From: an uncultured virus (IMG/VR IMGVR_UViG_3300031688_000006)
Lineage: Duplodnaviria > Heunggongvirae > Uroviricota > Caudoviricetes
Reading direction: 5' to 3' (one strand)
IMG/VR virus record: IMGVR_UViG_3300031688_000006
DNA: 64,000 bases
Below are positions 9,050 through 27,748 of this stretch, piece by piece (the stretch's first letter is position 1; each line of letters opens with the position of its first letter). The notes below the pieces were generated by a model. The model had not been told where the DNA came from, did not search any database, and saw only the letters and a list, made by a program, of their open reading frames with translations. A program made the position numbers and the translations under genes.

Positions 9050-9257
9050 GATAATACAGAAAGTGGAAGGATTTTCAGACCTAATTAGGGATGAAACCTC
9101 TCACGCTATTGTCAATACGAATGATGAACAGTATAGATTGACAATTAGAAGAAGAGAGTTAATGAGAACTCAAAAGAATGAAATAAATACTCTTAAGATA
9201 GAGATAACAGAAATTAAAAACTTATTAAAAGATATAGTAGAGAAATTACATGGCTAA
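9042..9257 (+). CDS. Small conserved phage protein with C-terminal coiled coil
   Basis: KVEG..DLIRDE.S.AIVN motif, typical of the gene downstream of the DUF4815 gene. Confidence 0.65.
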   Translation: MPKIIQKVEGFSDLIRDETSHAIVNTNDEQYRLTIRRRELMRTQKNEINTLKIEITEIKNLLKDIVEKLHG

Positions 9258-11923: not shown

Positions 11924-13561
11924 ATGTCAGATGATATTTTTATAAAACAGGACCAAGTTATAGGGCAACAACCCTTTATTAGTCAGACTGCGGTCAGTGG
12001 ACAAGCATATACAACATCACAAAGAGTCTATCAAGTTCCATCGATTGGACAGACTCCGTTTACATATGTAAATCGTACTCCTACTATAACACAAACGGCT
12101 TTAAATGTTCAGAATCCTTCAACTTATCAACATAGAAGTCCATTAACTTATCAACATAGAAGTCCGTCAACTTACAATCATAGAAGTCCTTTTACATATA
12201 ATCATAGGTCTCCGTTTACATATAACGCAAGACAACCGGCCAGCTATCAACATCAATCGCCTTCGACTTATCAGGTTAGTTATTCAAGACGAGAATCGTC
12301 TAACTATGACCATAGAAGTCCGTTTATAACGCAGGTTTCTAGAAGCGCACAAGAACCTAATATTACTCAGACTAGAACTCCGTTGATTTATCAACATCAA
12401 AGTACGTTTACCTATGACCATAGAAGTCCGTTGACATATGACCATAGGTCACCTGTTATTAGTCAGTCTACTTACAACCATAGAGAACCTATAATTTATC
12501 AAAGTAGAACCTCCGTGCAGAGTTCGTTTACTTATCAACATAGAAGTCCGTTTACTTACGACCATAGAGAACCAAGTACATATAATCATAGGTCATCTTT
12601 TCAGAGTCCGTTGATTTATCAACATCAAAGTCCTGCGACATATAATCATAGGTCATCTTTTCAAAGTCCGTTTACTTACGACCATAGAAGTCCGTTGACA
12701 TATGACCATAGGTCTCCGTTTATTTACCAAAACACTGCAAGTAAACAGACTACCGTTACTTACAACCATAGGTCGCCGTTGACATATGACCACAGGTCGC
12801 CGTTGACATATGACCATAGGTCACCATTTACATATGACCACAGAAGTCCTTTGACATATGACCATAGAAGTCCGTTGACATATAACCATAGGTCACCATT
12901 TACATATAGTAGAAGAACTCCTTTCATCTTTGATGGTGTAGATGGAGATGACGCTGGAGATAATTCAACAACTTGGGGTCCAGGCGATAGTAGTGCAATT
13001 GCATATGTTTCTGCTTCAGATGTAACTAGTAATCGTCTTTGGGATTCTACAGTAAATTCCAGTTCCGCATCTGGTGCTCACAATGCAAATTGCCAAATGA
13101 TTTTTAATTATCAAACAACTGGTTCAAACGCTAACACCCTTAGGGCCCGATGGCACATGGACAAATCAGCTCAAAGTACACAAATATCAAGATATGAAGA
13201 CTTTATTCAAAGTCATAGTCCAAGTGGTATCGATAGTTCTTGGTCATGGGATGTTAAATGGGAAACTACAACTGCGAGTCCAGGGTATTTCACCTCGAAT
13301 AACAACGGTATTGGAACCGGACCAAGTCTTGCTGAAGATACTTATCATAATGTATGGAATGGAACCACTGCTACTCAAAGACTATTCAAGTGGGAAGGTA
13401 GTACTTCTAACCAATCCGAGGCAGAAGTTAATCTTATCTCAGCTAATGTGAAATTCACTGTAAGAATATCGAAATCTGGAGAAACTTCTTTGTTTACATC
13501 GACTACAGCGCAATCGGTGTCAGTCTTCGTACTTAATACTGGCGGCGGAGGAGGTCCATAA
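11924..13561 (+). CDS. Mirror-pair 1 strand A: RSPxTYxH repeat protein with ~200-aa C-terminal globular domain
   Basis: aa 15-330 Pro-anchored 8/12-aa repeats; Trp/Ser/Thr-rich C-terminal domain ending TGGGGGP. Confidence 0.85.
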   Translation: MSDDIFIKQDQVIGQQPFISQTAVSGQAYTTSQRVYQVPSIGQTPFTYVNRTPTITQTALNVQNPSTYQHRSPLTYQHRSPSTYNHRSPFTYNHRSPFTYNARQPASYQHQSPSTYQVSYSRRESSNYDHRSPFITQVSRSAQEPNITQTRTPLIYQHQSTFTYDHRSPLTYDHRSPVISQSTYNHREPIIYQSRTSVQSSFTYQHRSPFTYDHREPSTYNHRSSFQSPLIYQHQSPATYNHRSSFQSPFTYDHRSPLTYDHRSPFIYQNTASKQTTVTYNHRSPLTYDHRSPLTYDHRSPFTYDHRSPLTYDHRSPLTYNHRSPFTYSRRTPFIFDGVDGDDAGDNSTTWGPGDSSAIAYVSASDVTSNRLWDSTVNSSSASGAHNANCQMIFNYQTTGSNANTLRARWHMDKSAQSTQISRYEDFIQSHSPSGIDSSWSWDVKWETTTASPGYFTSNNNGIGTGPSLAEDTYHNVWNGTTATQRLFKWEGSTSNQSEAEVNLISANVKFTVRISKSGETSLFTSTTAQSVSVFVLNTGGGGGP

Positions 13562-14673
13562 TGGCAACAGGACAACAACCACTAATATCGCAGGCACAAC
13601 AACCGGTAATTAGAAACCAACAAGAACCTAATATTAGAAACCAACAAGAACCTAATATCAGAAGTCAGCAAGAGCCCAATATTAGAAGTCAACAAGAGCC
13701 CAATATTAGAGTTCAGCAAGAGCCTAATATTAGAAATACTCAACAGCCTTCGATATATCAGAATTCTGTAAATTCTCAACAACCTAATATTAGAAATCAG
13801 CAAGAACCTAATATCAGAGTTGGTCAGGAAACTAATCAACAACCTAATATTAGAAATCAGCAAGAACCTAATATTCGTTCAAAACAAGTAACAGCACAAC
13901 AACCTACTATTAAGAATGCACAAAGTCCTTATATTAGAAATGCCCAAGACCCAAGCATAAGAACTGGTCAGGCGACAGTACAACAACCTAGTATTGCGAA
14001 TCTACAGTCTCCTTTAATTGCAAGAGCATCAATAGCCTCGCAAGAACCTAACATTAGAAGTCAACAAGAACCTAATATTAGAGTAAGTCGAGAACCAAAT
14101 ATTGCAAGTAGTCAGCAACCTAGTATTACTCAGACTAGAAGTCCCTTTATCTATAGGCACCCAATTAACGCTCAAGAACCTAACACTAGAGTACACCAGT
14201 CACCGGTGATTTCACAGGCGATTGCGAATAATCAACAACCTAATATTAGGGATGCTCAGACACCTTATATTGCTACTGGTCAAGAACCTAACATTAGAAA
14301 TCAACAAGAACCCAACATTAGAAATAATCAAGAACCTAACATTAGAAATCAACAAGAACCTAATATTAGAAGTAAACGAAGTCCTTCTATTGCACAACAA
14401 CCTACTATAAGTCAGCAACCTTATATTGCTAATGCACAACAAACTTATCAATTTACAACTGCGGTGCAACAAACTTACTTCCATAGGTCTCCGTTCATTT
14501 ACCAATCGAATACTAACAGTAATAGACCAATAGGTCCAGTTGCAAAAGTTAAAGGAGTATTCATAAAAGATGCTGATGGTACCGTAAAACCATCAACAAA
14601 AGTATTCGTTAAGAAAGACAGTTCAACAGTTGAGAAAATACATCAAGTACCTGCAACAGACTTTAACAAATAG
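13561..14673 (+). CDS. Mirror-pair 1 strand B: QEPNIRxQ repeat protein with C-terminal beta adaptor
   Basis: aa 5-320 repeats; TAATG overlap with previous gene; C-terminal KVKGVFIKDADGTVK..KVFVKKD. Confidence 0.85.
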   Translation: MATGQQPLISQAQQPVIRNQQEPNIRNQQEPNIRSQQEPNIRSQQEPNIRVQQEPNIRNTQQPSIYQNSVNSQQPNIRNQQEPNIRVGQETNQQPNIRNQQEPNIRSKQVTAQQPTIKNAQSPYIRNAQDPSIRTGQATVQQPSIANLQSPLIARASIASQEPNIRSQQEPNIRVSREPNIASSQQPSITQTRSPFIYRHPINAQEPNTRVHQSPVISQAIANNQQPNIRDAQTPYIATGQEPNIRNQQEPNIRNNQEPNIRNQQEPNIRSKRSPSIAQQPTISQQPYIANAQQTYQFTTAVQQTYFHRSPFIYQSNTNSNRPIGPVAKVKGVFIKDADGTVKPSTKVFVKKDSSTVEKIHQVPATDFNK

Positions 14674-14690
14674 GATGACTAAATAGTAAT

Positions 14691-15023
14691 ATGGCTATAC
14701 TCGCAAATTTATTCATTGACCAAGGAACAGACTTCACTATTGTAGTCGATGTTTCAGATGCAACAGGAGAGATTTTAAATCTTTCAGGTTATGTTTCTGC
14801 TGGTCAAATTAGAAAGACTTACGGTTCTTCAACCGTTTCAGCGACATTCACTACTACCAATGCAAACGCTACAGGTAAAGTAACCATGTCTTTGACTGAT
14901 ACTCAAACTTCAGCATTAGAATCTGGAAGATATGTTTATGATATGAACATAACCAGTGCTAGTGGTGTAACTACAAGAGTTGTCGAGGGCCAAGCAATCA
15001 TAACACCAGGAGTGACAAGATAA
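14691..15023 (+). CDS. Conserved virion-associated protein (BppU N-terminal-like Ig fold)
   Basis: NLFIDQGTDF, GQIRK, GRYVYD, RVVEG motifs; late-promoter-like ACTAAATA at 14678. Confidence 0.6.
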   Translation: MAILANLFIDQGTDFTIVVDVSDATGEILNLSGYVSAGQIRKTYGSSTVSATFTTTNANATGKVTMSLTDTQTSALESGRYVYDMNITSASGVTTRVVEGQAIITPGVTR

Positions 15024-15262
15024 TGGCAATCAAGGGAGTCGTATCTAGAGTCGCAACTATAGGTGGTGTATTGTCCAATACAACAAATTTAAGAGCAAAA
15101 CAGGTGACTGTTGGTGCTCAAGGTAACAATGACATTTCTGCCAAGTCAATCAATGAACTATCAGATGTAAATGCAACCGAAACTGATAATGGTCTTCTCT
15201 CATATGACCTATCGTCAGATAAGTGGACAACTACTACTACTATAGACGGCGGAACATTTTAG
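15023..15262 (+). CDS. Small fibre-associated protein ending IDGGTF
   Basis: LSDVN...GLLSYD...KW repeat typical of fibres; C-terminal IDGGTF. Confidence 0.65.
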   Translation: MAIKGVVSRVATIGGVLSNTTNLRAKQVTVGAQGNNDISAKSINELSDVNATETDNGLLSYDLSSDKWTTTTTIDGGTF

Positions 15263-15289
15263 TTTACTAAATAATAGTAACAAATCAAG

Positions 15290-15372
15290 GATACCGACCA
15301 GTGAAGGTATCGACCCACATTGTGAGTGGACTGAATTTATATTATGTAATCACGACTCAGGAGTGCTGAGTC
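15290..15372 (+). other. Three-hairpin structured leader (candidate cis-regulatory RNA)
   Basis: GATACC/GGTATC, CCAC/GTGG and GACTCAG/CTGAGTC stems downstream of ACTAAATA (15266). Confidence 0.45.
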
Positions 15373-15407
15373 AAAACAATTAATTTAATTTTTATAGGAA
15401 AATAAAA

Positions 15408-17135
15408 ATGGCAACAGTAATTCAAATCAAAAGAAGTACAGGTTCCGCGGCTCCTTCAACTAGTAATCTAAGTGAAGGTGAAATGGCGTATGTACAAGAT
15501 AGAAGTAATTCTGGCGCATCTGCTAAACTATTCATCGAGTCAGTCGATGCCAGTAATAATGCAGCTATCCACTCAGTGGGTGGTAAGTATTATACTGATA
15601 TCGTTGACGGAACTTCAGCAACACCTGCTAACTTAAAAGTTGGTAATGGTTCTACTGCTGGTGCAACTTTACAAATCATGGAAGACTCCGATAACGGAAC
15701 AAACTTCGTTGGTCTTAAAGCTGCAGATGCTCTTGGAGCATCAGTAACTTTCACACTACCTAGTGCTGATGGTTCAAATGGACAAGTTATAGGAACAGAT
15801 GGTTCAGGAAGTCTTTCTTTCGTATCAACAACTTCAACCCTTGCTGGTGGTAGTGATGTAAGCATCACATCTGCTGCTGATGGAGCGATGTTATTATATG
15901 ATACAGGAACATCAAAATGGATCGATAATGTAATGTCTGGAGACGCCACTATGGCTGACACAGGTGTTCTAACTATTGGATCCCAAAAAGTCCTCAACTC
16001 TATGTTGGCTGACGATGCAGTTGGAGCTGATGAATTAGCTTCTAACGCAGTCGTAACGGCATCTATCGTTGACGCAAACGTAACAACTGCAAAAATCGCT
16101 GACGATGCTGTAGATGCTGATAAATTAGCATCAAGTGCCGTAGTATTCGCTTCATTAGCGGGTGCATTGGTTCAGGCATCTGGTGAAGCTTTCGCAGATA
16201 ACGACACAACTTTAATGACTTCAGCTGCTATTCAGGACAAAATCCAAGCATTAGCAACTACAGAAGACTTAGACCTTGCAGGTGATAGTGGAACTGGTGC
16301 AGTCGATTTAGACTCTCAGTCACTAACAGTCTCTGGTACAGCAAACGAAGTTGAAACAAGTGTTAGTGGAACGACTATAACAGTCGGTTTACCAAACAAT
16401 GTAACAGTCGCTAACAACTTAACAGTTTCAGGAAACTTAATATCAGACGATATTACAACTGCAACTTTAACAACATCTGGTAACTTAACAGTCACAGGAA
16501 ACTTGGCAGTTAATGGTACTACAACAACAGTAAACTCTTCAACAGTAAATATCGCAGACCCAGTTTTCGAAATTGGTTCAGATAGTTCAGACGATAACCT
16601 AGACAGAGGTATCAAATTTAAGTACAACTCCGGTGGTGCTAAGATTGGTTTCTTTGGTATGGATGATACAGATGGTTCTTTTGTTGCTCTAGAAAGTGCA
16701 ACAGATAGTTCATCTACATTCTCTGGTACTGCAATGGCTGGTAAATTCGGAAACTTAACTATTGCTAACGCAACAATGAGTGGAAGTATTAACAGTTATG
16801 CAGGTACTGCTCCTACAGATGGTCAAATCCTAATTGGTGACACATCTTCAGGTTTAATGGACAAAGCTACTCTTACTGCTGGTGACGGAATCGATATCAC
16901 TAATGGTGCAGGTTCTATATCAATCAGTGCTGAACAGTCAACTGCATCTAATTTAGGTGTTGTTATTGTCGCTGCTGGTGAAGGTATGGACGTTGCTTAT
17001 AGTGGTGGAACTGCTACGATTACTGGAGAAGATGCAACAGTATCTAACAAAGGTATCGCTAGTTTTGCTACAGCAAACTTTACTGTAACAAGTGGTGCAG
17101 TGGCTATCACTGCTATTGACGGTGGAACATTCTAA
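15408..17135 (+). CDS. Tail fibre-like protein (IQIKRS N-terminus, IDGGTF C-terminus)
   Basis: MATVIQIKRSTG..AP...L.EGE N-terminal domain; ADDAV.ADEL repeats; LTVTGNL.VNGTTTTVNS fibre motif. Confidence 0.7.
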   Translation: MATVIQIKRSTGSAAPSTSNLSEGEMAYVQDRSNSGASAKLFIESVDASNNAAIHSVGGKYYTDIVDGTSATPANLKVGNGSTAGATLQIMEDSDNGTNFVGLKAADALGASVTFTLPSADGSNGQVIGTDGSGSLSFVSTTSTLAGGSDVSITSAADGAMLLYDTGTSKWIDNVMSGDATMADTGVLTIGSQKVLNSMLADDAVGADELASNAVVTASIVDANVTTAKIADDAVDADKLASSAVVFASLAGALVQASGEAFADNDTTLMTSAAIQDKIQALATTEDLDLAGDSGTGAVDLDSQSLTVSGTANEVETSVSGTTITVGLPNNVTVANNLTVSGNLISDDITTATLTTSGNLTVTGNLAVNGTTTTVNSSTVNIADPVFEIGSDSSDDNLDRGIKFKYNSGGAKIGFFGMDDTDGSFVALESATDSSSTFSGTAMAGKFGNLTIANATMSGSINSYAGTAPTDGQILIGDTSSGLMDKATLTAGDGIDITNGAGSISISAEQSTASNLGVVIVAAGEGMDVAYSGGTATITGEDATVSNKGIASFATANFTVTSGAVAITAIDGGTF

Positions 17136-17176
17136 GGAAACTGAGAATATTTTAATTTAATCAATAGGAGATAGAC

Positions 17177-18001
17177 ATGGCAACAGTTATACAGTTTAAA
17201 AGAAGTTCTACTCAGAACGCAGTTCCGACTACAGGCAATTTAGCCTTAGGGGAACTGGCTGTCAATACTTATCACGGTAGATTTTATACCGAGAAGAATG
17301 ATGGTTCCGCTGCTGTTGTAGAGATTGGGTCTAACCCAAAAACTCTACAAATTAATGACGCTATAACATTTCCAACCAGTGATGGTTCAAATGGACAAGT
17401 TCTTACAACCAATGGTTCAGGAACAGTTTCATTTGAAACCTTAGGTGGTTCAGGTGTTTCAATTTACAAATACACCGTTTCGGGTAACCAAACTGTATTT
17501 ACAGGTAACGATGATGACAGTAATGCATTATCTTACACTGTAGGTTCAGAACAGGTATTCTTAAATGGTGTTAAGTTGATTGATGGTGGTGCAGATTATA
17601 CTGCAACAAACACAACGACTATTACGCTGGCGGAAACTGCAATTGCAGGTGATACAGTAGAAGTAGTAGCAGTCACGGCTGCTAATTTAGTACAAGGATT
17701 CTATACAAATAGTGTCTTTAGTGCAACTACTGCTAACCAAGTATTATCAAGTAATGCAGTTACGAATAAGGGTATTAAATATGTAATTACTGCCACTCAT
17801 GCGAGTGCAGGAACACATTCAGCCGAAGTATTATTAATCAATGATGGATCCAGTGCATATTTCGTCCAATATGGCGATATATTCAGTGCTGCTTCATTAT
17901 TTTCGTTGACTGCTGATGTTAATTCAGGAAACATGAGACTCTTATGTACACCTGCTAACACCAACACAACGGTTAATACTTTCCAAATAAGACAATCATA
18001 G
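17177..18001 (+). CDS. Fibre-associated protein
   Basis: MATVIQFKRS...L..GELAVN N-terminus; FPTSDGSNGQVL; shared C-terminal KY...H..E.L..HDG...QYG domain. Confidence 0.65.
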   Translation: MATVIQFKRSSTQNAVPTTGNLALGELAVNTYHGRFYTEKNDGSAAVVEIGSNPKTLQINDAITFPTSDGSNGQVLTTNGSGTVSFETLGGSGVSIYKYTVSGNQTVFTGNDDDSNALSYTVGSEQVFLNGVKLIDGGADYTATNTTTITLAETAIAGDTVEVVAVTAANLVQGFYTNSVFSATTANQVLSSNAVTNKGIKYVITATHASAGTHSAEVLLINDGSSAYFVQYGDIFSAASLFSLTADVNSGNMRLLCTPANTNTTVNTFQIRQS

Positions 18002-18012
18002 GGGGATAGAAA

Positions 18013-18423
18013 ATGGCTATAACAAGAAGTTTTAAACTTGCTGAATTTATTCGTCACATGTCTTATAACTCTAGTACAGATAGGATAGAAACAGTAAAAG
18101 AAATACAAGATGAGAATACATCAACGGGCGGAGTCACTAAGACTGCAACTACTGAATTTTCACTTGACAATTTTACTCATGCTACCTATAGAGCTGCGAG
18201 ATATATCGTGGCTATGTCAGAGGGAAGTAATTTCCATTCAACGGAGATAATGTTGGTACATGATGGTTCCACTGTTACTTTAACACAATACGGAACACTG
18301 AAAGATACTAACTTAGCGACATTTGATGCAGACATTAGTGGCACAACTGTTAGACTATTATGCACACCTGCGAGTACAAACTCAACGGTCATAAAGTTCA
18401 ACAGAACTACAGTAGAAGCTTAA
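18013..18423 (+). CDS. Fibre-associated protein, paralogue of the C-terminal domain of 17177 and 18501
   Basis: YRAARY...HSTEIMLVHDG...QYG...DISG..VRLLCTPA. Confidence 0.65.
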   Translation: MAITRSFKLAEFIRHMSYNSSTDRIETVKEIQDENTSTGGVTKTATTEFSLDNFTHATYRAARYIVAMSEGSNFHSTEIMLVHDGSTVTLTQYGTLKDTNLATFDADISGTTVRLLCTPASTNSTVIKFNRTTVEA

Positions 18424-18442
18424 ATACAGTAATTTATTATGT

Positions 18443-18468
18443 AAAGGGGACTTTTAGTCCCCTTTTTT
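18443..18468 (+). terminator. Intrinsic terminator
   Basis: AAAGGGGAC-TTTTA-GTCCCCTTT plus T-tract. Confidence 0.85.
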
Positions 18469-18500
18469 GAGCTCAATATAAAAATAACATAAATAACACC

Positions 18501-19319
18501 ATGGCATCAAAAGTAAAATTTTTCGCAGATTTAGGTGTTCAGTCGAAACTAAACACCCAAGTAGATGGCGACCTCACTGTTGCAGGTAACTTGACTGTTA
18601 CCGGAAATTCACTAACCGTTAATTCGACCACAACTTCTGTTGGCGATTCTATGTTCGAATTCGCAAATCAGAATACTGAAGCAGATTTAATCGATATTGG
18701 TTTCTACGGAAACTATAACGATGGTTTATCAGATGGTGGTGCATCTGAATACACAGGTCTATTCAGAGATGCATCGGATTCTACATGGACATTATTTGAT
18801 GGTTTAGAAGTAGAACCAGGGACTACAGTTAATACTAGTGGTTCGGGTTACGCACTTGCTGATTTAAAACTTGGAGATTTGACATCTTCAACATTGACGG
18901 CAGCTGGGTTACTATATCCTACTTCAGATGGTTCTAACAATCAAGTCTTAATGACTAATGGTTCAGGACAATTATCGTTTCAAGATGCTGGGTCAGGATT
19001 GACAGCAGGTACAGTCACAACAACTTCTACCACTATCACGAATTTAGACACGATGGCAATTGCAAGTTATAGGGGTGCAAAGTACACTGTAACAGTCTCA
19101 GACGCTACAGGAGGCGATTACGAGATAACAGAGATACATGTGATACATGACGGCACTAATGCGAGTATAACGCAGTTTGGTACAGTATTACAGGGTACTT
19201 CTAGTGAGTTGGGAACATTCTCAGTAGATATTGATTCAGGAAATCTAAGATTAAGAGTTACATCCTCCTCTTCTAATTCAACTGTATACAACTTCAAGAG
19301 AATCGACCACTCAACATAA
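18501..19319 (+). CDS. Fibre-associated protein
   Basis: GNLTVTG fibre motif, YTGLFRDASD, same C-terminal domain as 17177 and 18013. Confidence 0.65.
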   Translation: MASKVKFFADLGVQSKLNTQVDGDLTVAGNLTVTGNSLTVNSTTTSVGDSMFEFANQNTEADLIDIGFYGNYNDGLSDGGASEYTGLFRDASDSTWTLFDGLEVEPGTTVNTSGSGYALADLKLGDLTSSTLTAAGLLYPTSDGSNNQVLMTNGSGQLSFQDAGSGLTAGTVTTTSTTITNLDTMAIASYRGAKYTVTVSDATGGDYEITEIHVIHDGTNASITQFGTVLQGTSSELGTFSVDIDSGNLRLRVTSSSSNSTVYNFKRIDHST

Positions 19320-19369
19320 AAAAAGTCATTATTTTTTATAGTAAGTAATGGTTTAGAACATCACCAATC

Positions 19370-19377
19370 TATAAATA
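19370..19377 (+). promoter_or_regulatory. Late promoter TATAAATA
   Basis: Exact consensus upstream of the 19419 operon. Confidence 0.75.
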
Positions 19378-19418
19378 ATAGTATTAATTACTAACACTTT
19401 TACAAAAGGACACAAAGA

Positions 19419-19637
19419 ATGGCAACAACACAAACATTTGTAATCGAGTATGGGTTATCAGTTGGGTCATCAGAAGTTATCAATTCGAGTGGAAAAATCG
19501 CCGCAGGCGCTATGACCAACATTGATACCGATGATATCGCTGAGGGTTCATCTTCACTTTACTTTACTTCAGGAAGATTCAATAGTTCTTTTGATACAAG
19601 ACTATCTAATGCCACTATAGATGGAGGCACTATCTAA
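19419..19637 (+). CDS. Small fibre-associated protein ending IDGGTI
   Basis: FVIEYGLSVG N-terminus similar to the next gene; TDDIAEG..LYFT..R motif. Confidence 0.65.
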   Translation: MATTQTFVIEYGLSVGSSEVINSSGKIAAGAMTNIDTDDIAEGSSSLYFTSGRFNSSFDTRLSNATIDGGTI

Positions 19638-22207
19638 TGACAAGTAAGAATTTCATAATCAAAAACGGCTTAACAGTAGGAACTACTGAAGTCATAACAT
19701 CTGCTGGTGTAGTTACTGGTGCAGGTGTCAACGAGGCAGTTGACGATAGAGTCAATTCACTATTAACAGCAGGTGCAGGCATTGGGCTTGCATATGATGA
19801 CGCTGCTGGAACATTGACAATCACAGGTAATGTTGGGGACATCACAGGCGTAAACGCTGGTGCTGGTCTAACAGGAACTGCAACATCTGGTGATGCAACA
19901 CTAAACATTGGTGCTGGTACAGGTATTACTGTAAACGCCGATAACATTGCAATCAATTTCAAAGACGAAGACAATATGTCTTCAAACAGTGCAACTCATG
20001 CCGCTACTCAACAATCAGTCAAGGCATATGTAGATTCACAAATACAAACCAAAGATAATACAGACGAAATCACTGAAGGTTCAAATCTTTACTTTACAAA
20101 TGAAAGAGTAGATGACAGAGTTAATGCATTACTAGTTGCCGGAACAGGTATTACATCTACATACGATGATGCCGCTGGAACACTTACACTTAACGGACAA
20201 GTTGGTGATGTAACAAGTGTCGTATCAGGAACTGGTCTAACAGGTGGTGGAACGAGTGGTGATGTAACAGTAAATGTTGTTGGTGGTACAGGTATAATCG
20301 CAAATGCGAATGATATCGCAATCGATACTTCTGTAACAGTAGATTTAACTACTAGTCAAACACTTTCAGGCAAAACACTAACATCTCCAATCTTAAATAC
20401 TGCTCTATCTGGTACTGCATTCTTAGACGAAGACGACTTCTCAAGTAATGCGAATGATAAAGTTGCATCTCAACAATCTATTAAAACATATGTTGATGCA
20501 TCTGTTGCCGCTAAAGACAATACAGACGAGATAACAGAAGGTTCAAGTAACTTATACTTTACAAATGCAAGAGCAGACGCTAGAATAACTAACGCATTAG
20601 TTGACGAAGACAATATGGCTTCAGATAGTGCTACTAAAGTTGCATCACAACAAAGTATTAAGGCATATGTAGATTCAAGTGTTGCCGCTAAAGATAATAC
20701 AGACGAAATTACAGAAGGTTCAAACCTTTATCACACCACTGCAAGAGCAAGAGCATCTATAAGTGCTGGTGGTGACTTAGCATACAACAGTACAACTGGT
20801 GTAATGAGTTTCACGAACGATGCAGGAGATATTTCTTCAGTAGTCGCTGGAACTGGTACAACAGGTGGCGGAACTGCTGGTGATGTAACAATAAATGTTA
20901 TTGGCGGAGAAGGTATCACTGCAAACGCAAACGATATCGCATTATCATCCTCAGTTGCTGGTGATGGTCTTGCATTCTCATCTGGTGTTTTGAATGTAGA
21001 AGTAGACGATAGTTCTATAGAAACAAGTTCAGATACATTACAAGTAAAAGCAGGTGGTGTTACTAACGCCATGTTGGCAGGTTCTATTTCAAATGCTAAC
21101 CTTGCAGGTTCAATCGCAAACGCAAAATTGGCCAACTCATCAATTACAATAGACGGAAGTGCTGTTGCATTGGGTGGTTCAATTACTACTAATAACACAC
21201 AACTTACACAAGAAAATGTAGAAGACTTTGTTGGTGGTATGTTAGATGGTACCGAAACAGGTATCTCTGTATCATACGATGACACTGCTGGTAATCTTGA
21301 TTTTGTCGTAAGTGGTGTCACAAATGCCATGTTGGCTGGTTCAATCAACCAAGACAAACTTGCAGGTTCAATTGCAAACGCAAAACTTGCTAACAGTGTA
21401 ATAACGATTGATGGTCAATCTACTGCATTGGGTGGTTCAGTCACAACAACTAATACACAAAGAAGTCAAGAAGAAATTGAAGACTTCGTTGGTGGTATGC
21501 TAGATGGTACCGAAACAGGTATCTCAGTATCATATGATGATACAGATGGCAACATCGACTTTGTTGTAGACAACTCAGACTTCGCTCTAACAGGCGATGT
21601 TACTGGTACTGTTACTCAGACTGCAAAAGGTAATGTGTCTATTTCAACAACAATCGCTGCTAACTCAGTTGCACTTGGCTCAGATACAACAGGTAATTAT
21701 ATTGCCGCTGTGAGTGCAGGTACTGGTATCTCAGTAAGTGGTTCTGGTGAAGGCGCAACATCAACAGTCAGTATTGGACAGGCAGTTGCAACATCCGATA
21801 ATGTTCAGTTTGCAAACTTAGTGTTATCAGGCAACTTAACAGTTAATGGTGCAACAACTACAGTTAGTTCAACTAACACAGCAATCGAAGATGCATTGAT
21901 AGAATTAGGGACAGGTACTTCAGGTACGCCTTCTAACGATGCTGGTTTTGTTATTGAAAGAGGAAGTTCCGACAATGTATTCATTGGTTGGGACGAGAGT
22001 GCAGATGCTATAACATTTGGTACTGGTAGTTTTACTGGTGCATCTACAGGTAATTTAAGTATTACACCAAGTGCAGTTAATACAGGCGCCTTGACGATTA
22101 CTAATGCTAGTAACTCAGGCGGAACTGCGAGAAACATATTTCAGTCAACATCAGCTCCAGGCGGAAGTGATGGCGCAGTTGGCGATTTATGGGTTCTCTA
22201 CTCTTAA
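19637..22207 (+). CDS. Tail fibre / virion fibre protein 2
   Basis: Repeated TDEITEGSNLYFT.xR, GDITxVxAGxGLTG and EDFVGGMLDGTETGISVSYDD modules; ends STSAPGGSDGAVGDLWVLYS. Confidence 0.75.
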   Translation: MTSKNFIIKNGLTVGTTEVITSAGVVTGAGVNEAVDDRVNSLLTAGAGIGLAYDDAAGTLTITGNVGDITGVNAGAGLTGTATSGDATLNIGAGTGITVNADNIAINFKDEDNMSSNSATHAATQQSVKAYVDSQIQTKDNTDEITEGSNLYFTNERVDDRVNALLVAGTGITSTYDDAAGTLTLNGQVGDVTSVVSGTGLTGGGTSGDVTVNVVGGTGIIANANDIAIDTSVTVDLTTSQTLSGKTLTSPILNTALSGTAFLDEDDFSSNANDKVASQQSIKTYVDASVAAKDNTDEITEGSSNLYFTNARADARITNALVDEDNMASDSATKVASQQSIKAYVDSSVAAKDNTDEITEGSNLYHTTARARASISAGGDLAYNSTTGVMSFTNDAGDISSVVAGTGTTGGGTAGDVTINVIGGEGITANANDIALSSSVAGDGLAFSSGVLNVEVDDSSIETSSDTLQVKAGGVTNAMLAGSISNANLAGSIANAKLANSSITIDGSAVALGGSITTNNTQLTQENVEDFVGGMLDGTETGISVSYDDTAGNLDFVVSGVTNAMLAGSINQDKLAGSIANAKLANSVITIDGQSTALGGSVTTTNTQRSQEEIEDFVGGMLDGTETGISVSYDDTDGNIDFVVDNSDFALTGDVTGTVTQTAKGNVSISTTIAANSVALGSDTTGNYIAAVSAGTGISVSGSGEGATSTVSIGQAVATSDNVQFANLVLSGNLTVNGATTTVSSTNTAIEDALIELGTGTSGTPSNDAGFVIERGSSDNVFIGWDESADAITFGTGSFTGASTGNLSITPSAVNTGALTITNASNSGGTARNIFQSTSAPGGSDGAVGDLWVLYS

Positions 22208-22234
22208 TAAATAACCATTTAAGGATTATATAAT

Positions 22235-24196
22235 ATGGCGACAGGTTCACAAAAGGTCAAAACACCCACAGGTTGGAATTCTACAAGAGGTGCATGGGTA
22301 AAAACTGCATCAGGTACTTGGAAAGATGCAGAACAAATCTATGTCAAGACTCCAACAGGTTGGAATAACGCATCAGGACAGGCAAGTGTCCAACAACCTT
22401 ATCCGTACATTGCTAACAATCAAGAACCCAATATAAGAAATAGGCAAAACCCTTATCCTTATATTGCTAATGCTCAAGAACCGAATATAAGAGATGCACA
22501 ACAACCGTATCCTTATATTGCTAATGCTCAAGAGCCTAATATTAGAGATGCAAGACAACCTGCGATTTATCAAAATCCAGTAAGCGCACAAGAACCTAAT
22601 ATTAGAAACCAACAAGAACCTAATATTAGAAGTCAACAAGAACCTAATATTAGACCGGCGAGACAACCTTCTACATATCAACATAGAAGTCCGTCAACAT
22701 ATAGAGACCCTAGAACATATCAACATCCGACTACCTATCAGCATAGAAGTCCTTTGACTTATCAGCATAGAAGTCCGTTGACATATAACCATAGGTCGCC
22801 GTTGATTTATCAACATCAATCGCCTTCTACATATAGTAATAGACAACCTAGTACATATAATCATAGGTCACCTTATCAGAGTCCGTTTACTTACAATCAT
22901 AGAAGTCCGTTGACATATAACCATAGGTCACCGTTTACATATCGTAATCCGTTTACCTATAACCATAGAAGTCCTCTAACATATAACCATAGGTCTCCTT
23001 ATAGAAGTCCGTTCACTTATCAACATAGAGAACCGAACACTTATAACCATAGGTCACCTTATCAGAGTCCGTTCACTTATCAACATAGAGAACCGAACAC
23101 TTATAACCATAGGTCACCGTTTACATATCGTAATCCGTTTACCTATAACCATAGAAGTCCTTTAACATATAATCATAGAAGTCCTTACACTTATAACCAT
23201 AGGTCACCGTTTACTTACCGTAATCCGAGTACCTATAACCATAGAAGTCCTTCAACATATAATCATAGAAGTCCTTACACTTATAACCATAGGTCGCCAT
23301 TTACATATCGTAATCCGTTCACCTATCGTAATCCGTTTACATATAACCATAGGTCACCGTTTACATATCGTAATCCATTTACCTATCGTAATCCGTTTAC
23401 ATATAATCATAGGTCGCCGTTTACATATCGTAATCCGTTTACCTATCAGTTGCCGTTCACATATAACGCAAGACAACCGTTTACATATAACGCAAGACAA
23501 CCAGGCACATATAACAACAGACAACCGTTCACTTACAATCATAGAGAACCGTATACTGTTAATGCAAGACAACCGTTTACATATAATGCTCGTACTGGAG
23601 TTAATGTCCAATCTGTTGGACAACAACCAAGTATTTACTCATTCCGTAACCCGTTCAACTTCCCAGGTGGTGGCGGAGGTTGCTTCGCTCCAGGTTCATT
23701 GATATGGCTTGCAGATGGAAGTCATTCGCCTATTGAAGATTGTGTTCTTGGTCAATATGTAATGACTTGGAACGAAAGTACAAAACTTCTAGAACCTAGA
23801 GAGATATCTCTAATCATGCAACCAAGAATGTGTCCTATATTTGATGTTACATTCTCAGATGGAAGAGTATTACAAATGACTGATACTCATCCATTAATGT
23901 TACCAAATGGTCAATGGGGTGCATTAGATGTTGAGAAATCAGTTAGAGAACATGAATGGATGCAAGATATAGAAACTCATGAAATCGCAATTGGCGATAG
24001 TATCTTTAGTATGTTAGATGGTATAATGTTTGACAGACAAGATGAAATGGGCTTAGAAATAGTATCTGTAGAAGAACATTCAGAGATGGAAGTACATAAC
24101 TTAAGTGGAGTTCAAGACAACAATAACTTCTTTGTTAATGGAATGCTCGCTCATAACTTTGGTAATCAGTTCCAGTCTCCACAGGTTAAGAACTAA
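22235..24196 (+). CDS. Mirror-pair 2 strand C: N-terminal VKT..GW adaptor, 418-aa repeat array, C-terminal Hint domain
   Basis: aa 1-52 three VKTxxGxW repeats; aa 53-470 QEPNIR then RSPFTYNH repeats; GGGGG-CFAPG...TDTHP...FFVNGMLAHN. Confidence 0.85.
   Translation: MATGSQKVKTPTGWNSTRGAWVKTASGTWKDAEQIYVKTPTGWNNASGQASVQQPYPYIANNQEPNIRNRQNPYPYIANAQEPNIRDAQQPYPYIANAQEPNIRDARQPAIYQNPVSAQEPNIRNQQEPNIRSQQEPNIRPARQPSTYQHRSPSTYRDPRTYQHPTTYQHRSPLTYQHRSPLTYNHRSPLIYQHQSPSTYSNRQPSTYNHRSPYQSPFTYNHRSPLTYNHRSPFTYRNPFTYNHRSPLTYNHRSPYRSPFTYQHREPNTYNHRSPYQSPFTYQHREPNTYNHRSPFTYRNPFTYNHRSPLTYNHRSPYTYNHRSPFTYRNPSTYNHRSPSTYNHRSPYTYNHRSPFTYRNPFTYRNPFTYNHRSPFTYRNPFTYRNPFTYNHRSPFTYRNPFTYQLPFTYNARQPFTYNARQPGTYNNRQPFTYNHREPYTVNARQPFTYNARTGVNVQSVGQQPSIYSFRNPFNFPGGGGGCFAPGSLIWLADGSHSPIEDCVLGQYVMTWNESTKLLEPREISLIMQPRMCPIFDVTFSDGRVLQMTDTHPLMLPNGQWGALDVEKSVREHEWMQDIETHEIAIGDSIFSMLDGIMFDRQDEMGLEIVSVEEHSEMEVHNLSGVQDNNNFFVNGMLAHNFGNQFQSPQVKN
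23681..24157 (+). other. Hint (intein-like) autoprocessing domain, 159 aa, no endonuclease
   Basis: Cys1 (CFAPGSLIWLADG), block B TxxH (TDTHP), terminal HN; +1 residue is Phe. Confidence 0.85.
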
Positions 24197-24242
24197 TGAA
24201 TCTAATAATCAATAAAAACATGATAGTAAGGGGTAATATCTA

Positions 24243-25571
24243 ATGCCACAACAACCGGTAATAGCAAACGCTCGAGCGAGTGTCAGGTCCCCTAGTATAG
24301 GACAACAACCTTACATTGCAAATGGTCAAACTCCATTTATTCAACCTACGCAGGGTCCTGCTATAAGAAACGGCCAGACACCGTACATCGCTAATAGTCA
24401 GACGCCTTATATTGCTAATGGACAGACACCTTATATTGCTAATGCGAGGTCGCCTAGAAACGGTCAATCGCCTAGTAATGCACAAGAACCTAATATTAGA
24501 AGTGCTCAGTCACCTAGTAATGCTCAGTCACCTAGTAACGCACAAGAACCTAACATTAGAAGTGCCCAGTCACCTAGTAATGCTCAGTCACCTAGTAACG
24601 CACAAGAACCGAACATTAGGTCTATACAAGAACCTAATATTAGAAACAATCAGCAACCTAATATTAGAAATGCTCAGACGCCTAGTAACGCACAAGAACC
24701 GAACATTAGGTCTATACAAGAACCTAATATTAGAGCTCAACAAGAACCTAATATTAGAAGTGCCCAGTCACCTAGTAACGCACAAGAACCTAATATAAGA
24801 AGTTATCAGTCTCCTTATATTGCGAGCGCACAACAGTCTGCTCAAGAACCTAATATAAGAAGTTATCAGTCTCCTTATATTGCGAATGCTCAGCAAACAG
24901 CACAACAACCTAACATTAGAAACCAACAAGAACCTAATATTAGAAATGGTCAGTCACCTAGTAATGCACAAGAACCTAACATTAGAAGTCAACAAGAACC
25001 TAATATTCGTTCAGCACAACAATCAGCACAAGAGCCGAATATCAGAAATGCTCAGACTCCTTATATTGCGAATGCACAAAATCCATTTGCTAGAAGTCAA
25101 CAAGAACCTAACATTAGAAACCAACAAGAACCTAATATTAGAGCTCAACAAGAACCTAATATAAGAAACAGACAGACTACTTCTAATTATCAGAATCCTG
25201 TAAATGCTCAGAATCCATTTATTAGAAATGCTCAGACACCATTTACATATGACCATAGAAGTCCGTTGACATATGACCATAGGTCACCATTGACTTACAA
25301 TCATAGAAGTCCGTTTACTTACAGAAATCCTTCAAGTAGTCAGACTCCGTTTACTTATGACCATAGAAGTCCTTCGACATATGCTAGACAAGGTCAAACA
25401 CCTTTCACATATCAACATCAAAGTCCTTCAACATATGCTAGACAAGGTCAAACACCTTCTACTTATGACCATAGAAGTCCTTCGACATATGCTAGACAAG
25501 GTCAGACAACTGTTATCCGTGGGGATGGTGTTCTATCGCAAACGTGGCCAGGCACTCCTATATCGTCATAA
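24243..25571 (+). CDS. Mirror-pair 2 strand D: 418-aa repeat array
   Basis: aa 3-420 QEPNIR/QSPSNA then RSPxTYDH repeats; almost no non-repeat sequence. Confidence 0.85.
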   Translation: MPQQPVIANARASVRSPSIGQQPYIANGQTPFIQPTQGPAIRNGQTPYIANSQTPYIANGQTPYIANARSPRNGQSPSNAQEPNIRSAQSPSNAQSPSNAQEPNIRSAQSPSNAQSPSNAQEPNIRSIQEPNIRNNQQPNIRNAQTPSNAQEPNIRSIQEPNIRAQQEPNIRSAQSPSNAQEPNIRSYQSPYIASAQQSAQEPNIRSYQSPYIANAQQTAQQPNIRNQQEPNIRNGQSPSNAQEPNIRSQQEPNIRSAQQSAQEPNIRNAQTPYIANAQNPFARSQQEPNIRNQQEPNIRAQQEPNIRNRQTTSNYQNPVNAQNPFIRNAQTPFTYDHRSPLTYDHRSPLTYNHRSPFTYRNPSSSQTPFTYDHRSPSTYARQGQTPFTYQHQSPSTYARQGQTPSTYDHRSPSTYARQGQTTVIRGDGVLSQTWPGTPISS

Positions 25572-27167: not shown

Positions 27168-27192
27168 AGAAAAATTAAATTATGGAGTTATT

Positions 27193-27744
27193 ATGAATAT
27201 GTTAATTTATTGTGAGAATGGTCATCTTACTATCAGAAAACCAAATGGCCTAGAATGGAGACATGAGAATGTCGACAAACCAGAATTGGGATTTGACTAT
27301 GATGTTTTAATCTATGATGATATCGAAGTTAAGATTATGGAGTGGAAAGACGATGTTCAGTTTGATGACCAAGTTAAACTTTCACTTACAGATGTAGAGT
27401 CAGATGCAATTGAGAATTACATTGAGAATTCTACACCACCTAATGATGTAACATTAGCAAATCAATACAGTCAACAAATCAATGATGTTTGTAGAGAGTA
27501 TACAGAACAACAAATGAATTCTTATGGATTCGAAAGTTTAGTAGATACTATGGCAGCTGCGAGAGATGGTTCAAATCATCCTTTAAGGTCAGATGCAAGA
27601 CGAGCATTAGAATACTATGATGTAATGTGGAATATTTACATCAATGTAATGAATGAAGTCAAGGCAACTAGAGAAGATTTATTACCAAATGTTGATGACT
27701 TCATTAATAGATTTCCTCAACCGCAACAAGCATTGATTGAATAG
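27193..27744 (+). CDS. Hypothetical protein, possibly tail-fibre assembly/chaperone-like
   Basis: GGAG SD; helical C-terminal half; located after the fibre genes. Confidence 0.45.
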   Translation: MNMLIYCENGHLTIRKPNGLEWRHENVDKPELGFDYDVLIYDDIEVKIMEWKDDVQFDDQVKLSLTDVESDAIENYIENSTPPNDVTLANQYSQQINDVCREYTEQQMNSYGFESLVDTMAAARDGSNHPLRSDARRALEYYDVMWNIYINVMNEVKATREDLLPNVDDFINRFPQPQQALIE

Positions 27745-27748
27745 TAGT

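Follow-up and report, generated by a model that had tools for sequence, protein, structure and literature searches.

Mirror-ordered repeat proteins encoded by adjacent genes of a T4-like marine myovirus, probable partner strands of an antiparallel fibre shaft

In the window, a stretch of 64,000 nucleotides of DNA from an uncultured member of the Caudoviricetes (IMG/VR record IMGVR_UViG_3300031688_000006), two pairs of adjacent genes, A1+B1 and A2+B2, encode tandem-repeat proteins in which the order of units in one chain mirrors that in the other. The mirror register, the covariation of facing residues, the conservation of both in relatives and an even periodicity are observed here, with no cause at the DNA level. 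Together, these properties indicate that the two proteins of each pair probably supply both strands of a single fibre shaft, joined in a long antiparallel two-chain beta-ladder. All four genes were identified from open reading frames (ORFs) and their translations and lie on the plus strand. Their setting, with tail-fibre genes around them, is that of a host-recognition cluster of a T4-like marine myovirus (PMC7029224). The genes and their parts are as follows.

A1: 11924-13561, plus strand, 545 aa.
A1 repeat array: residues 39-335, nt 12038-12928, mainly 8-residue TYxHRSPx ('H-type') units, from the proline map and mirror alignment.
A1 C-terminal tip domain: residues 336-545, variable, with GGGGGP at its end, from the tip-domain alignment.
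B1: 13561-14673, plus strand, 370 aa.
B1 repeat array: residues 7-311, mainly xQQEPNIR ('Q-type') units, mirroring A1 with i+j = 340.
A2, whole gene: 22235-24196, plus strand.
A2 conserved N-terminal domain and repeat array: 22235-23665, plus strand, residues 1-50 and 55-477, respectively.
A2 C-terminal cap: 23666-24196, plus strand, poly-Gly, then an autoprocessing domain of the Hint (intein-like) kind from Cys484.
B2: 24243-25571, plus strand, 442 aa.
B2 repeat array: residues 5-413, mirroring A2 with i+j = 478.

The stop codon of A1 overlaps the start codon of B1 (TAATG) and a GGAGG lies just 5' of it, which suggests that translation of these genes is coupled. The A2 array passes from Q-type and YPYIAN units to H-type, 6-residue TYRNPF and ARQP units, and the B2 array from Q-type, AQSPSN and QTPYIAN units to H-type units. 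As the same two unit families occur in both chains, A and B are probably homologous. B2 ends in a conserved VIRGDG..WPGTPISS. The last 50 residues of B1 contain a hairpin-like motif (VKGVFIKD...VFVKK) that is common to the N-terminal domain of A2, suggesting a role of B1 in virion attachment; a domain of the A2 type also starts an unrelated fibre-like protein of 1295 aa.

When the register is fixed from proline positions alone, A1(i) faces B1(340-i) without net indel across about 290 residues, and A2(i) faces B2(478-i) in the same way across about 410 residues. In this antiparallel alignment, 27 of the 31 prolines of A1 match one of the 37 prolines of B1, and 50 of the 61 prolines of A2 match one of the 54 of B2. 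The best parallel offsets match only 21 (pair 1) and 23 (pair 2) prolines, and the cross-pairs A1/B2 and A2/B1 at most 17. Shuffling the order of the B spacings 2000 times gave maxima of 21 and 31, so that the observed values were never reached. Mirror symmetry within a chain is weak, with at best 26/61 prolines for A2 and 22/54 for B2. The mirror pairing of the preliminary description was borne out by these comparisons, and more strongly than had been stated there. All 175 Pro-Pro spacings in the window are even, as are 3555 of 3556 in the family, which matches the two-residue period of a beta strand; only 48 of the 175 are divisible by three.

The mirror extends to the tandem arrays seen in the DNA, as 16 of 22 rows in A and 15 of 18 rows in B have a partner of the same period at the mirrored position (periods include 18, 48, 54, 60, and 90). 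Mirrored unit order would also be expected if the DNA had been duplicated in inverted form, if the coding were antisense-derived or if the mRNA of the two genes paired at long range, since nucleic-acid duplexes are antiparallel. Such an origin was tested and is extremely improbable: the DNA shows no similarity in reverse complement, where B is at most 37% identical to A over 61 shifts, compared with 38-39% for a plain reversal of B as control. The inverted repeats found measure only 16-17 nt, which is chance level, and a reverse complement cannot turn Pro codons into Pro codons.

At the level of residues, a pairing code had been proposed in which the residue before Pro (Pro-1) is Ser/Thr on one chain and Glu/Gln/Asn on the other. 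Facing units do exist as described, but the Pro:Pro unit pairs number 76 and not about 95. In 71 of them, Ser/Thr on one chain meets Glu/Gln/Asn/Asp on the other (41 with Ser/Thr on A, 30 in reverse), while none has Ser/Thr on both chains, three have an amide or acid on both, and two are of other kinds (Fisher 1e-17, a p-value that overstates independence because units are tandem-duplicated). In a separate count, 26/27 and 45/50 pairs were complementary, compared with no more than 24 and 36 when shuffled 5000 times, and complementarity fell to 49-80% when the register was shifted by 8 or 16. The individual swaps were all recovered at fixed register: REPS:QSPY (217:123), REPI:QSPL (189:151), RESS:QSPV (125:215), QEPN:RSPF (145:195), QSTF:REPN (161:179), and RTPL:QQPS (153:187) in pair 1, and REPN:QSPY twice (267:211, 287:191), RNP:QSP, and RQP:QTP in pair 2. 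The exceptions RDP:QNP (159:319) and REP:QGP (439:39) are likewise present. Arg at Pro-2 faces Gln as claimed (R:Q 60, Q:R 9, Q:Q 6, n = 75 pairs). The reported link between loss of His and loss of Arg also holds, since 46 of the 49 units with His at -3 have Arg at +3 opposite it and none of the 101 units without that His faces such an Arg.

Of 76 related IMG/VR loci that were fetched, 18 with a single repeat ORF at a contig end were left out, and the remaining 58 yielded 42 distinct adjacent pairs. In 41 of these pairs from viral metagenomes, the antiparallel match exceeds the parallel one (median ratio 1.62); the lone exception (L014) has a broken A ORF. Among pairs with whole ORFs, the sum c of facing positions ranges from 246 to 598 and the length of B scales with that of A over this 2.4-fold range. 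In some relatives, B is longer or shorter than A by whole super-repeats, reflecting either mis-assembly or tolerated mismatch. Across 930 distinct unit pairs of the family, Pro-1 is complementary in 676, Ser/Thr on both chains in 23, amide or acid on both in 113, and other in 118; S:E (181) and E:S (126) far outnumber E:E (4) and S:S (6). Because duplication and descent link the units and the loci, these counts are not independent events.

Mutual information between the chains, compared with shuffled controls, was strongly positive, in agreement with the proposed code. It peaks on the antidiagonal a+b = -2, i.e. A(i) with B(c-2-i), with the highest values for A(+1):B(-3) (1.17 bits), A(-3):B(+1) (1.02), and A(-1):B(-1) (0.90); these peaks surpass or approach the best value within a chain (1.04). 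In a mean-field direct coupling analysis (DCA; Meff 265), this antidiagonal has a mean inter-chain score of 3.35 and a+b = 0 one of 2.71, compared with -1.2 to 0.4 on all others, and all 11 pairs on a+b = -2 rank within the top 19. The second ridge, a+b = 0, may come from contacts on the diagonal, from units being matched in length or from a second interface. The physically meaningful register lies two residues off Pro:Pro, with Pro-1 directly opposite Pro-1 and each Pro opposite the Pro-2 residue of its partner.

The code is also broader than initially proposed. Complementarity at Pro-1 is real, but it is one part of a code that spans the whole ladder, and since Pro-1 shares only 0.9 of about 2.6 bits, it follows a class rule and not a one-to-one rule. 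The pair tables are symmetric on exchange of the chains (r = 0.86-0.91; counts in the two orientations are 364/351 for Y:R, 276/147 for H:N, and 212/235 for F:A), and the ladder pairs S/T:E/Q/N, H:N, Y:R, F:A/G, and L:Q are chemically sensible. The sharpest rule is F:A/G versus L:Q. In 372 distinct canonical RSP:QEP unit pairs, 171 of 174 F residues lie opposite A or G and 85 of 87 L residues opposite Q (Fisher 2e-62), and control positions lack such a dependence. Reciprocal swaps occur at orthologous positions, from QNP/QQP:QTP to QTP:QQP in loci L028, L053, and L055, from QEPNIR:HRSP to GSPYIA:NQNP twice in L057, and from ARQPAIY:SQTPFTY to NQTPFTY:ARQPGTY in L027.

If A and B formed separate homo-oligomeric fibres that never touch, their common repeat vocabulary could be due to descent, as the shared unit families and probable homology would allow, and their equal length to selection. 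Equal length alone, however, would not give a reversed unit order or obligate opposite unit types, and residue rules such as F:A/G versus L:Q at one specific pair of positions would have no explanation. Together with the weak mirror within each chain, this makes separate fibres very improbable.

In the preferred reading of a two-chain shaft, chain A would run from the virion-proximal end to the tip and chain B from the tip back. Lying side by side in physical contact at 1:1 stoichiometry, the chains would adopt beta conformation and form a continuous, bulge-free antiparallel ladder of about 290 (pair 1) and 410 (pair 2) residues, giving an extended shaft of the order of 100 nm. Complementary cross-strand pairs would set the register, with A(i) opposite B(c-2-i) and i+j = 338 and 476, respectively. 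One face of the ladder would carry S/T:E/Q/N, H:N, Y:R, and F:A/G or L:Q, while on the other each proline would lie opposite an Arg or Gln of the partner, next to T/I:N/S/Q pairs. Each unit type is matched with one obligate partner type of equal length (HRSPxTY/QEPNIR, TYRNPF/AQSPSN, ARQPFTYN/QTPYIAN, and HREPNTY/QSPYIA), making one chain the 'reverse complement' of the other. The arrays would grow by tandem duplication of super-repeats, with the A and B genes kept matched by selection for complementarity. A fused A-B form was found neither in the 42 locus pairs nor in a search for longer proteins, the latter being weak evidence.

Antiparallel pairing might also take place without a beta-ladder, in a polyproline-II, collagen-like heteromeric or other fibrous fold. 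The arrays are rich in proline (one per 4-8 residues), their conformation is not fixed by any model or solved relative, and none of the solved structures compared by sequence resembles them. This alternative is nevertheless quite improbable, given that the Pro-Pro spacings are uniformly even and seldom multiples of three, that the arrays have no Gly-X-Y pattern and are rich in T, I, Y, F, S, and N, and that the coupling is that of a residue-by-residue antiparallel ladder with alternating faces. A collagen-like fibre was rejected, as the arrays contain no GxxGxxG and only 1-9 Gly each.

Several known systems share single features with the proposed shaft. The antiparallel coiled-coil arms of SMC, Rad50, and MukB are long out-and-back rods whose returning segment mirrors the irregularities of the outgoing one, so that their register, too, is readable from sequence. 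These arms consist of alpha-helical heptads of a single chain, whereas the arrays have a two-residue period, are punctuated by Pro, and belong to two chains with complementary unit types. The C-terminus of T4 gp5, a triple-stranded beta-helix with 8-residue VxGxxxxx repeats, is likewise a fibrous module of a phage whose sequence repeats every 8 residues, but it is a parallel homotrimer, while the coupling seen here is antiparallel between two different chains. A helix of this kind was also rejected, as the match of B1 to Pfam Gp5_trimer_C reached only 18.5 bits (E 0.0023; cutoff 30.9) and no part of it passed the threshold. A further parallel is seen in the cross-strand pair preferences of beta-sheets. 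In chaperone-usher pili, donor-strand complementation is achieved by an antiparallel strand with fitting side chains, and its complementarity in size and hydrogen bonding resembles F:A/G, S:E, and Y:R. There, one short strand completes a globular fold, in contrast to a repeat-by-repeat code over hundreds of residues that co-evolves with array length.

The needle (domains D10-D11) of gp37, the tip protein of the T4 long tail fibre, as far as described in PMC6957217, is a thin, beta-structured distal part of a T4-type fibre in which the polypeptide runs out to the tip and back, with strands antiparallel along the fibre axis. D10 comprises residues 811-881 and 1010-1026, and the needle is lined by His residues that bind seven iron ions (PMC6957217). 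The arrays also have periodic His, but as single residues (23 in A1 and 24 in A2), with no HxH motif in any of the four arrays. In gp37, one chain supplies both directions of a short needle, whereas here two genes supply 290-410 residues of tandem repeats and neither chain is its own mirror. The four proteins had no match to a gp37 family in Pfam at E <= 0.01, nor to a gp37 family in PHROGs, and an Atlas lead to gp37_trimer scored 0.79, under the lead threshold of 0.9.

The two-strand shaft implies that B is kept in the mature fibre. B could instead be a length-matched, strand-complementing assembly chaperone or template, which pairs antiparallel with A during folding, holds it in register or soluble and is then released, leaving a fibre of A only. 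Covariation demands contact of A with B and not lasting association, and fibre genes of T4-like phages often precede a chaperone gene, with gp38 and gp57A serving gp37 in the account given in PMC6957217. Yet this role is unlikely: B scales with A over the whole 2.4-fold range of c and has conserved terminal motifs of its own at the proximal end, and the hairpin-like motif of B1 points to virion attachment. Moreover, a stoichiometric full-length chaperone of 370-442 aa would be unusual.

At the proposed shaft's distal end, the C-terminus of A would form a tip module. In pair 1, this would be the variable globular domain of A1, which is probably all-beta according to a low-confidence AF2 model (pLDDT 52). 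In pair 2, it would comprise a poly-Gly linker and, after it, a Hint domain that cleaves itself. Residues 484-653 of A2 belong to the Hint/intein superfamily by sequence: all 11 aligned members match Pfam Intein_splicing (best 9.3e-11; A2 of the window 7.3e-8 and 32.8 bits, slightly below the cutoff of 35.8), nine match Hint, and the cap profile matches a DnaB mini-intein (1.8e-8) and the bacterial intein-like (BIL) domain 2lwy (9e-6) in the PDB. Invariant columns in the 11 sequences are G-C (Cys1 after Gly), TxxH, and the terminal His-Asn, which is followed by Phe in ten and Leu in one and then by only 4-14 residues. As there is no +1 Cys/Ser/Thr and no downstream extein to ligate, protein splicing is not expected and a canonical splicing intein was rejected. 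In the literature searched, no description was found of a fibre chain capped at its C-terminus by a Hint domain.

Directly 3' of B2 lies a set of genes that may act on the fibre.

Five-gene cassette: 25599-30036, plus strand, assigned by Pfam, in the order GT8-like glycosyltransferase, 183-aa ORF, 2OG-Fe(II) oxygenase, 297-aa ORF, second 2OG-Fe(II) oxygenase.
2OG-Fe(II) oxygenases: 27737-28492 and 29326-30036, plus strand, above the Pfam gathering score (2OG-FeII_Oxy_3 35.1 bits and 2OG-FeII_Oxy_5 66.4 bits, cutoff 27 for each).

All five genes follow the B gene of pair-2-type loci, starting 22-145 nt from it, in each of the 31 related loci that have 4 kb or more of downstream sequence, whereas none of 10 pair-1-type loci has this arrangement. 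Their synteny with B makes them candidate fibre modifiers, and residues modified by the conserved hydroxylase and glycosyltransferase cassette may alter the pair chemistry proposed above.

A two-stranded ribbon has no clearly hydrophobic face, so that it would be an odd stable object on its own. In a wider reading, which has close to an even chance of being right, the shaft is a protein analogue of a nucleic-acid duplex, with chains of about 300-560 residues zipped over their full length by a readable pair alphabet, possibly in a modified A3B3 bundle. This alphabet would consist of S/T:E/Q/N, H:N, Y:R, F:A/G, and L:Q together with complementary unit types of three lengths. Either gene would then be predictable from the other, and the arrays would slip, expand and re-match like complementary strands. 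Three ribbons may bundle as an A3B3 fibre with periodic His/Glu sites, which the neighbouring cassette would further modify.

No paper describing a two-chain, mirror-coded fibre was found in the literature searched. If the chains pair as implied, they would represent a new architecture for phage fibres and for fibrous proteins generally, namely a heteromeric ladder of antiparallel beta strands, some 100 nm in length, in which a sequence-readable residue code sets the register. In the wider reading, they would also provide a natural template from which beta-sheet heterodimers of defined length could be programmed. The related pairs, which differ in unit order and length, offer dozens of natural 'experiments' on the rules of beta-strand pairing. 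The expansion in step of two tandem-repeat genes without DNA similarity is an evolutionary puzzle. Fibres of such marine myoviruses are essentially unannotated, and the finding concerns the host-recognition apparatus of viruses whose relatives infect the most abundant heterotrophs in the sea.

The window holds two pairs of neighbouring genes for repeat proteins, in each of which the B chain mirrors the A chain backwards:

11924-13561, + strand: A1, repeat ORF of 545 aa (pair 1)
13561-14673, + strand: B1, repeat ORF of 370 aa (pair 1)
22235-24196, + strand: A2, repeat ORF of 653 aa (pair 2)
24243-25571, + strand: B2, repeat ORF of 442 aa (pair 2)

The arrays consist of two main unit families, the 'H-type' xHRSPxTY and the 'Q-type' xQQEPNIR, together with the shorter or intermediate units TYRNPF, AQSPSN, ARQPFTYN, QTPYIAN, HREPNTY, and QSPYIA. 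When the register of the chains is set from proline positions alone, A1(i):B1(340-i) places a B1 proline opposite 27 of 31 A1 prolines, and A2(i):B2(478-i) places a B2 proline opposite 50 of 61 A2 prolines. The best parallel offsets give 21 coinciding prolines for pair 1 and 23 for pair 2, the wrong partners (A1/B2, A2/B1) at most 17, and 2000 random reorderings of the B spacings peaked at 21 and 31, below the observed 27 and 50. Irregular proline spacings (4, 6, 10, 12, and 20) recur in reversed order on the partner chain. A single mirror constant c (340 or 478) applies from one end of the arrays to the other, which leaves no net indel across about 290 residues in pair 1 and about 410 in pair 2. 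The record nearest to the window, G001, has the same four genes without any further pair.

The preliminary description had proposed that this mirror pairing extends to a residue-level code, in which Ser/Thr before the unit proline (position Pro-1) faces an amide or acid on the partner, with reciprocal swaps. All unit pairs listed there are present at the fixed proline register, and this sequence pattern was confirmed; the number of unit pairs is 76 instead of the suggested 'about 95'. In these 76 Pro:Pro unit pairs, which like all units counted here include units related by duplication and descent, Ser/Thr and Glu/Gln/Asn/Asp occupy Pro-1 on opposite chains in 71 cases, while amide/acid residues on both chains account for three, other combinations for two, and Ser/Thr on both for none. 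This complementarity was never equalled when the assignment of B units to A units was shuffled, and it drops to 49-80% when the register is shifted by 8 or 16 residues. At Pro-2, 75 pairs comprise R:Q (60), Q:R (9), and Q:Q (6). Furthermore, 46 of 49 units with His at -3 are faced by Arg at +3, as are none of the 101 units that lack this His.

Two scans of IMG/VR yielded 76 related loci; 18 were left out (single repeat ORF, contig ends), and the remaining 58 reduce to 42 different A/B pairs of adjacent genes, which are always on the same strand with 3-55 nt between them. The antiparallel proline match exceeds the best parallel one in 41 of the 42 pairs (median ratio 1.62). The single exception is locus L014, whose A ORF is broken; at L014:3857-5957 the A gene is distributed over two overlapping ORFs of 444 and 345 aa, where other relatives have one 700-aa ORF, and this split is a frameshift or sequencing error inside the repeats. 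Among pairs with whole ORFs the mirror constant takes values from 246 to 598; thus, the A and B genes vary in length in step. A compact, short-tailed pair is that of L074, with 308 and 264 aa. H-type and Q-type blocks alternate within each chain in some relatives, such as locus L031, where the opposite type is always found on the partner and short junction units face their own copies.

The residue code is also present across this family. At Pro-1, 676 of 930 distinct unit pairs of relatives are complementary, the rest being S/T:S/T (23), amide/acid on both chains (113), and other combinations (118); S:E and E:S occur 181 and 126 times, E:E and S:S four and six times. The inter-chain mutual information that such compensatory covariation should produce was found as a positive ridge at proline offsets summing to -2 (a+b, the A and B offsets from the unit prolines), with 1.17 bits for A(+1):B(-3), 1.02 for A(-3):B(+1), and 0.90 for A(-1):B(-1); the best within-chain neighbour value is 1.04 bits. 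Mean-field direct-coupling analysis of 1131 distinct contexts (effective number 265) gave mean inter-chain couplings of 3.35 at a+b = -2 and 2.71 at a+b = 0, with -1.2 to 0.4 on all other antidiagonals, and all 11 pairs of the -2 ladder are within the top 19 couplings. The ridge at a+b = 0 could be due to diagonal contacts, unit-length matching, or a second interface. The ridge at -2 identifies A(i) facing B(c-2-i) as the register with physical meaning. As read from the sequences, this register would place Pro-1 opposite Pro-1 and each proline opposite the Arg/Gln at Pro-2 of the partner.

The preferred pairs on this ladder are S:E/E:S, Q:T/T:Q, S:Q/Q:S, and N:N at (-1,-1), H:N, F:A, Y:V, and Y/F:G at (+1,-3) and (-3,+1), and Y:R at (+3,-5) and (-5,+3), while T/I is found with N/S/Q on the other face. 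Exchanging the chains leaves the pair tables nearly unchanged (r = 0.86-0.91), which is what an antiparallel pair with pseudo-twofold symmetry would show. The clearest rule for single residues comes from canonical units that are otherwise identical: among 372 distinct RSP:QEP pairs, Ala/Gly is opposite post-proline Phe in 171 of 174 cases and Gln opposite Leu in 85 of 87 (Fisher 2e-62), and three control positions are without this dependence. Relatives also have reciprocal swaps at orthologous sites within the conserved proximal end, namely QNP/QQP:QTP to QTP:QQP in L028, L053, and L055, QEPNIR:HRSP to GSPYIA:NQNP at two positions in L057, and ARQPAIY:SQTPFTY to NQTPFTY:ARQPGTY in L027.

Proline-proline spacings are even in 175 of 175 cases in the four arrays, where 48 of 175 are multiples of three, and in 3555 of 3556 cases in the relatives. 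Such even spacing fits a bulge-free extended strand, whose period is two residues, and would bring all prolines onto the same face. Facing units are always of equal length and, together with the even spacings and the coupling ladder, this leads us to read the pair as a continuous antiparallel β-ladder. Neither a Gly-X-Y pattern nor an HxH motif is present in the four arrays, and no solved structures resembling the arrays were found. A complex prediction for three copies each of A2[1-112] and B2[366-442], with custom alignments of 21/25 sequences that left out the length-mismatched loci L039, L040, L045, and L056, gave an ipSAE of 0.00 in both runs and a partner pLDDT <50, a result that weighs neither for nor against binding. 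Based on the covariation and spacing patterns, the mature fibre probably contains A and B as an antiparallel ladder; by analogy with the gp37 needle of phage T4, our guess would be that three such ribbons assemble into A3B3.

The mirror might in principle have arisen at the DNA level, as an inverted copy of one gene. The reverse complement of B is at most 37% identical to A at any of 61 shifts, which is no better than the 38-39% reached by plain reversal of B, a meaningless control, and only chance inverted repeats of 16-17 nt were detected between the genes. A DNA-level origin was therefore rejected, and the mirror exists at the protein level only. Tandem arrays in the two DNAs match: for 16 of the 22 TRF rows of A1 and A2, an array of the same period lies at the mirrored partner coordinates, and the same holds for 15 of 18 rows of B1 and B2 at mirrored A coordinates, with periods including 18, 48, 54, 60, and 90 nt. 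As the DNAs of A and B are unrelated, the matched arrays must have arisen by independent duplications that selection retained. If a slip spans a whole super-repeat, most of the pairing would be preserved, which would make co-expansion feasible. Some A/B combinations in metagenomic relatives differ by whole super-repeats of 18, 44, or 88 residues, and these are either real heterogeneity or mis-assembly by collapsed repeats. The same or nearly the same A is combined with B of different length in L039 vs L041, L031 vs L040, L044 vs L056, and L045 vs L046.

The mirror axis lies at the end of the A array and the start of B, so A extends to the tip and B returns from it. The A chains of this family carry one of three tip modules:

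Module 1: variable globular domain of the A1 type, about 205-225 aa
Module 2: poly-Gly and then a Hint domain, the A2 type (window 23666-24196)
Module 3: short Gly-rich tail, in relatives

The A1 tip domain was modelled with AF2 from a five-sequence alignment as an all-beta fold of low confidence (pLDDT 52, pTM 0.62), and a Foldseek search of this model against the PDB gave no match at E <= 0.001, with TM scores <=0.3. The intein-like Hint domain of A2 matches mini-inteins and a bacterial intein-like domain, and its Gly-Cys, TxxH, and His-Asn motifs are invariant. In A2-type domains His-Asn is followed by Phe or Leu, where the splicing nucleophile would be, so self-cleavage, predicted between Gly483 and Cys484 of A2, is expected rather than splicing. 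A1 ends with GGGGGP, and its stop codon overlaps the start of B1 (TAATG, window 13545-13563). The A1 Gly codons GGCGGAGGAGGT contain a Shine-Dalgarno-like GGAGG just upstream of this start; the poly-Gly coding sequence may thus double as the ribosome-binding site of B1, and overlap and GGAGG together suggest coupled, equimolar translation. At the proximal end, the A2 N-terminus (residues 17-38) and a C-terminal stretch of B1 have a hairpin-like motif, GxW/F-V/I-K...V/I-Y/F-VK, in common (8/22 identical; BLASTP E 1e-5 for that single comparison):

22283-22348: hairpin-like motif in A2
14548-14613: hairpin-like motif in B1

A similar N-terminus is found on the unrelated 1295-aa fibre-like protein P0094, and the motif may be a shared attachment module.

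Both pairs lie among the tail-fibre genes of a marine T4-like myovirus. The window further carries a 2263-aa VrlC-like ORF and tail-fibre-like ORFs, as well as genes for baseplate wedge, sheath, portal, scaffold, and major head proteins, the last being 63-66% identical to those of the Pelagibacter phages HTVC008M and Mosig and the Methylophilales Melnitz phages. The site, which lies between VrlC upstream and the neck genes downstream, is referred to, in a passage of PMC7029224, as the pelagimyophage 'host recognition cluster'. Other fibre-like ORFs, at 9250-11913, 15408-17135, 17177-18001, and 19637-22207, share modules; two of them start with MATVIQxKRS, and those of 887 and 856 aa both repeat a 'VEDxxGxM..G.TETG.SV.YDD' block. 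B2 is directly followed by a cassette of five genes:

25599-30036: GT8-like glycosyltransferase, two 2OG-Fe(II) oxygenases, and two unknown ORFs

All five genes follow pair-2-type B in 31 of 31 relatives with enough flank, at identities as low as 41-50%, and the cassette follows none of 10 pair-1-type loci. From this synteny it is plausible that the cassette modifies the fibre by hydroxylation and glycosylation.

Outside the metagenomic relatives, megablast of 17 kb against named phages gave just two chance matches of 42-46 nt. In tblastn searches of 50,697 phage records, for which the queries were A2, A1, and the repeat-free N-terminus of A2 and in which the BLAST low-complexity filter may mask repeat matches, nothing was found except Vibrio phage F23s1. 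This match to A2 (L077 19-450; 37% over 147 aa) covers repeats only, is antisense to the annotated feature, and is regarded as a spurious chance match. From 1.84 billion proteins, a profile of the A N-terminus retrieved 102 cluster representatives at E <= 0.001, including 56 at E <= 1e-10; the long proteins matched are unrelated eukaryotic-type repeat proteins. A search for longer proteins scored no fused single-chain A-B form, a weak indication that none exists, and the ESM Atlas gave nothing at 0.9 or above. Literature searches on tail fibres of phages, pelagimyophages, and marine myoviruses, on octapeptide or tandem repeats, and on antiparallel heterohexamers yielded no description, and in these searches the motif strings QEPNIR, HRSPFTY, YNHRSP, and PYPYIAN matched no paper.

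Functionally, the nearest known counterpart is the T4 gp37 needle, whose chain, as described in a passage of PMC6957217, runs out and back and is His-lined with iron. The A/B proteins differ from this needle in sequence, in having no HxH, and in being formed by two chains instead of a single one. In logic, the antiparallel coiled-coil arms of SMC-type proteins are closest.
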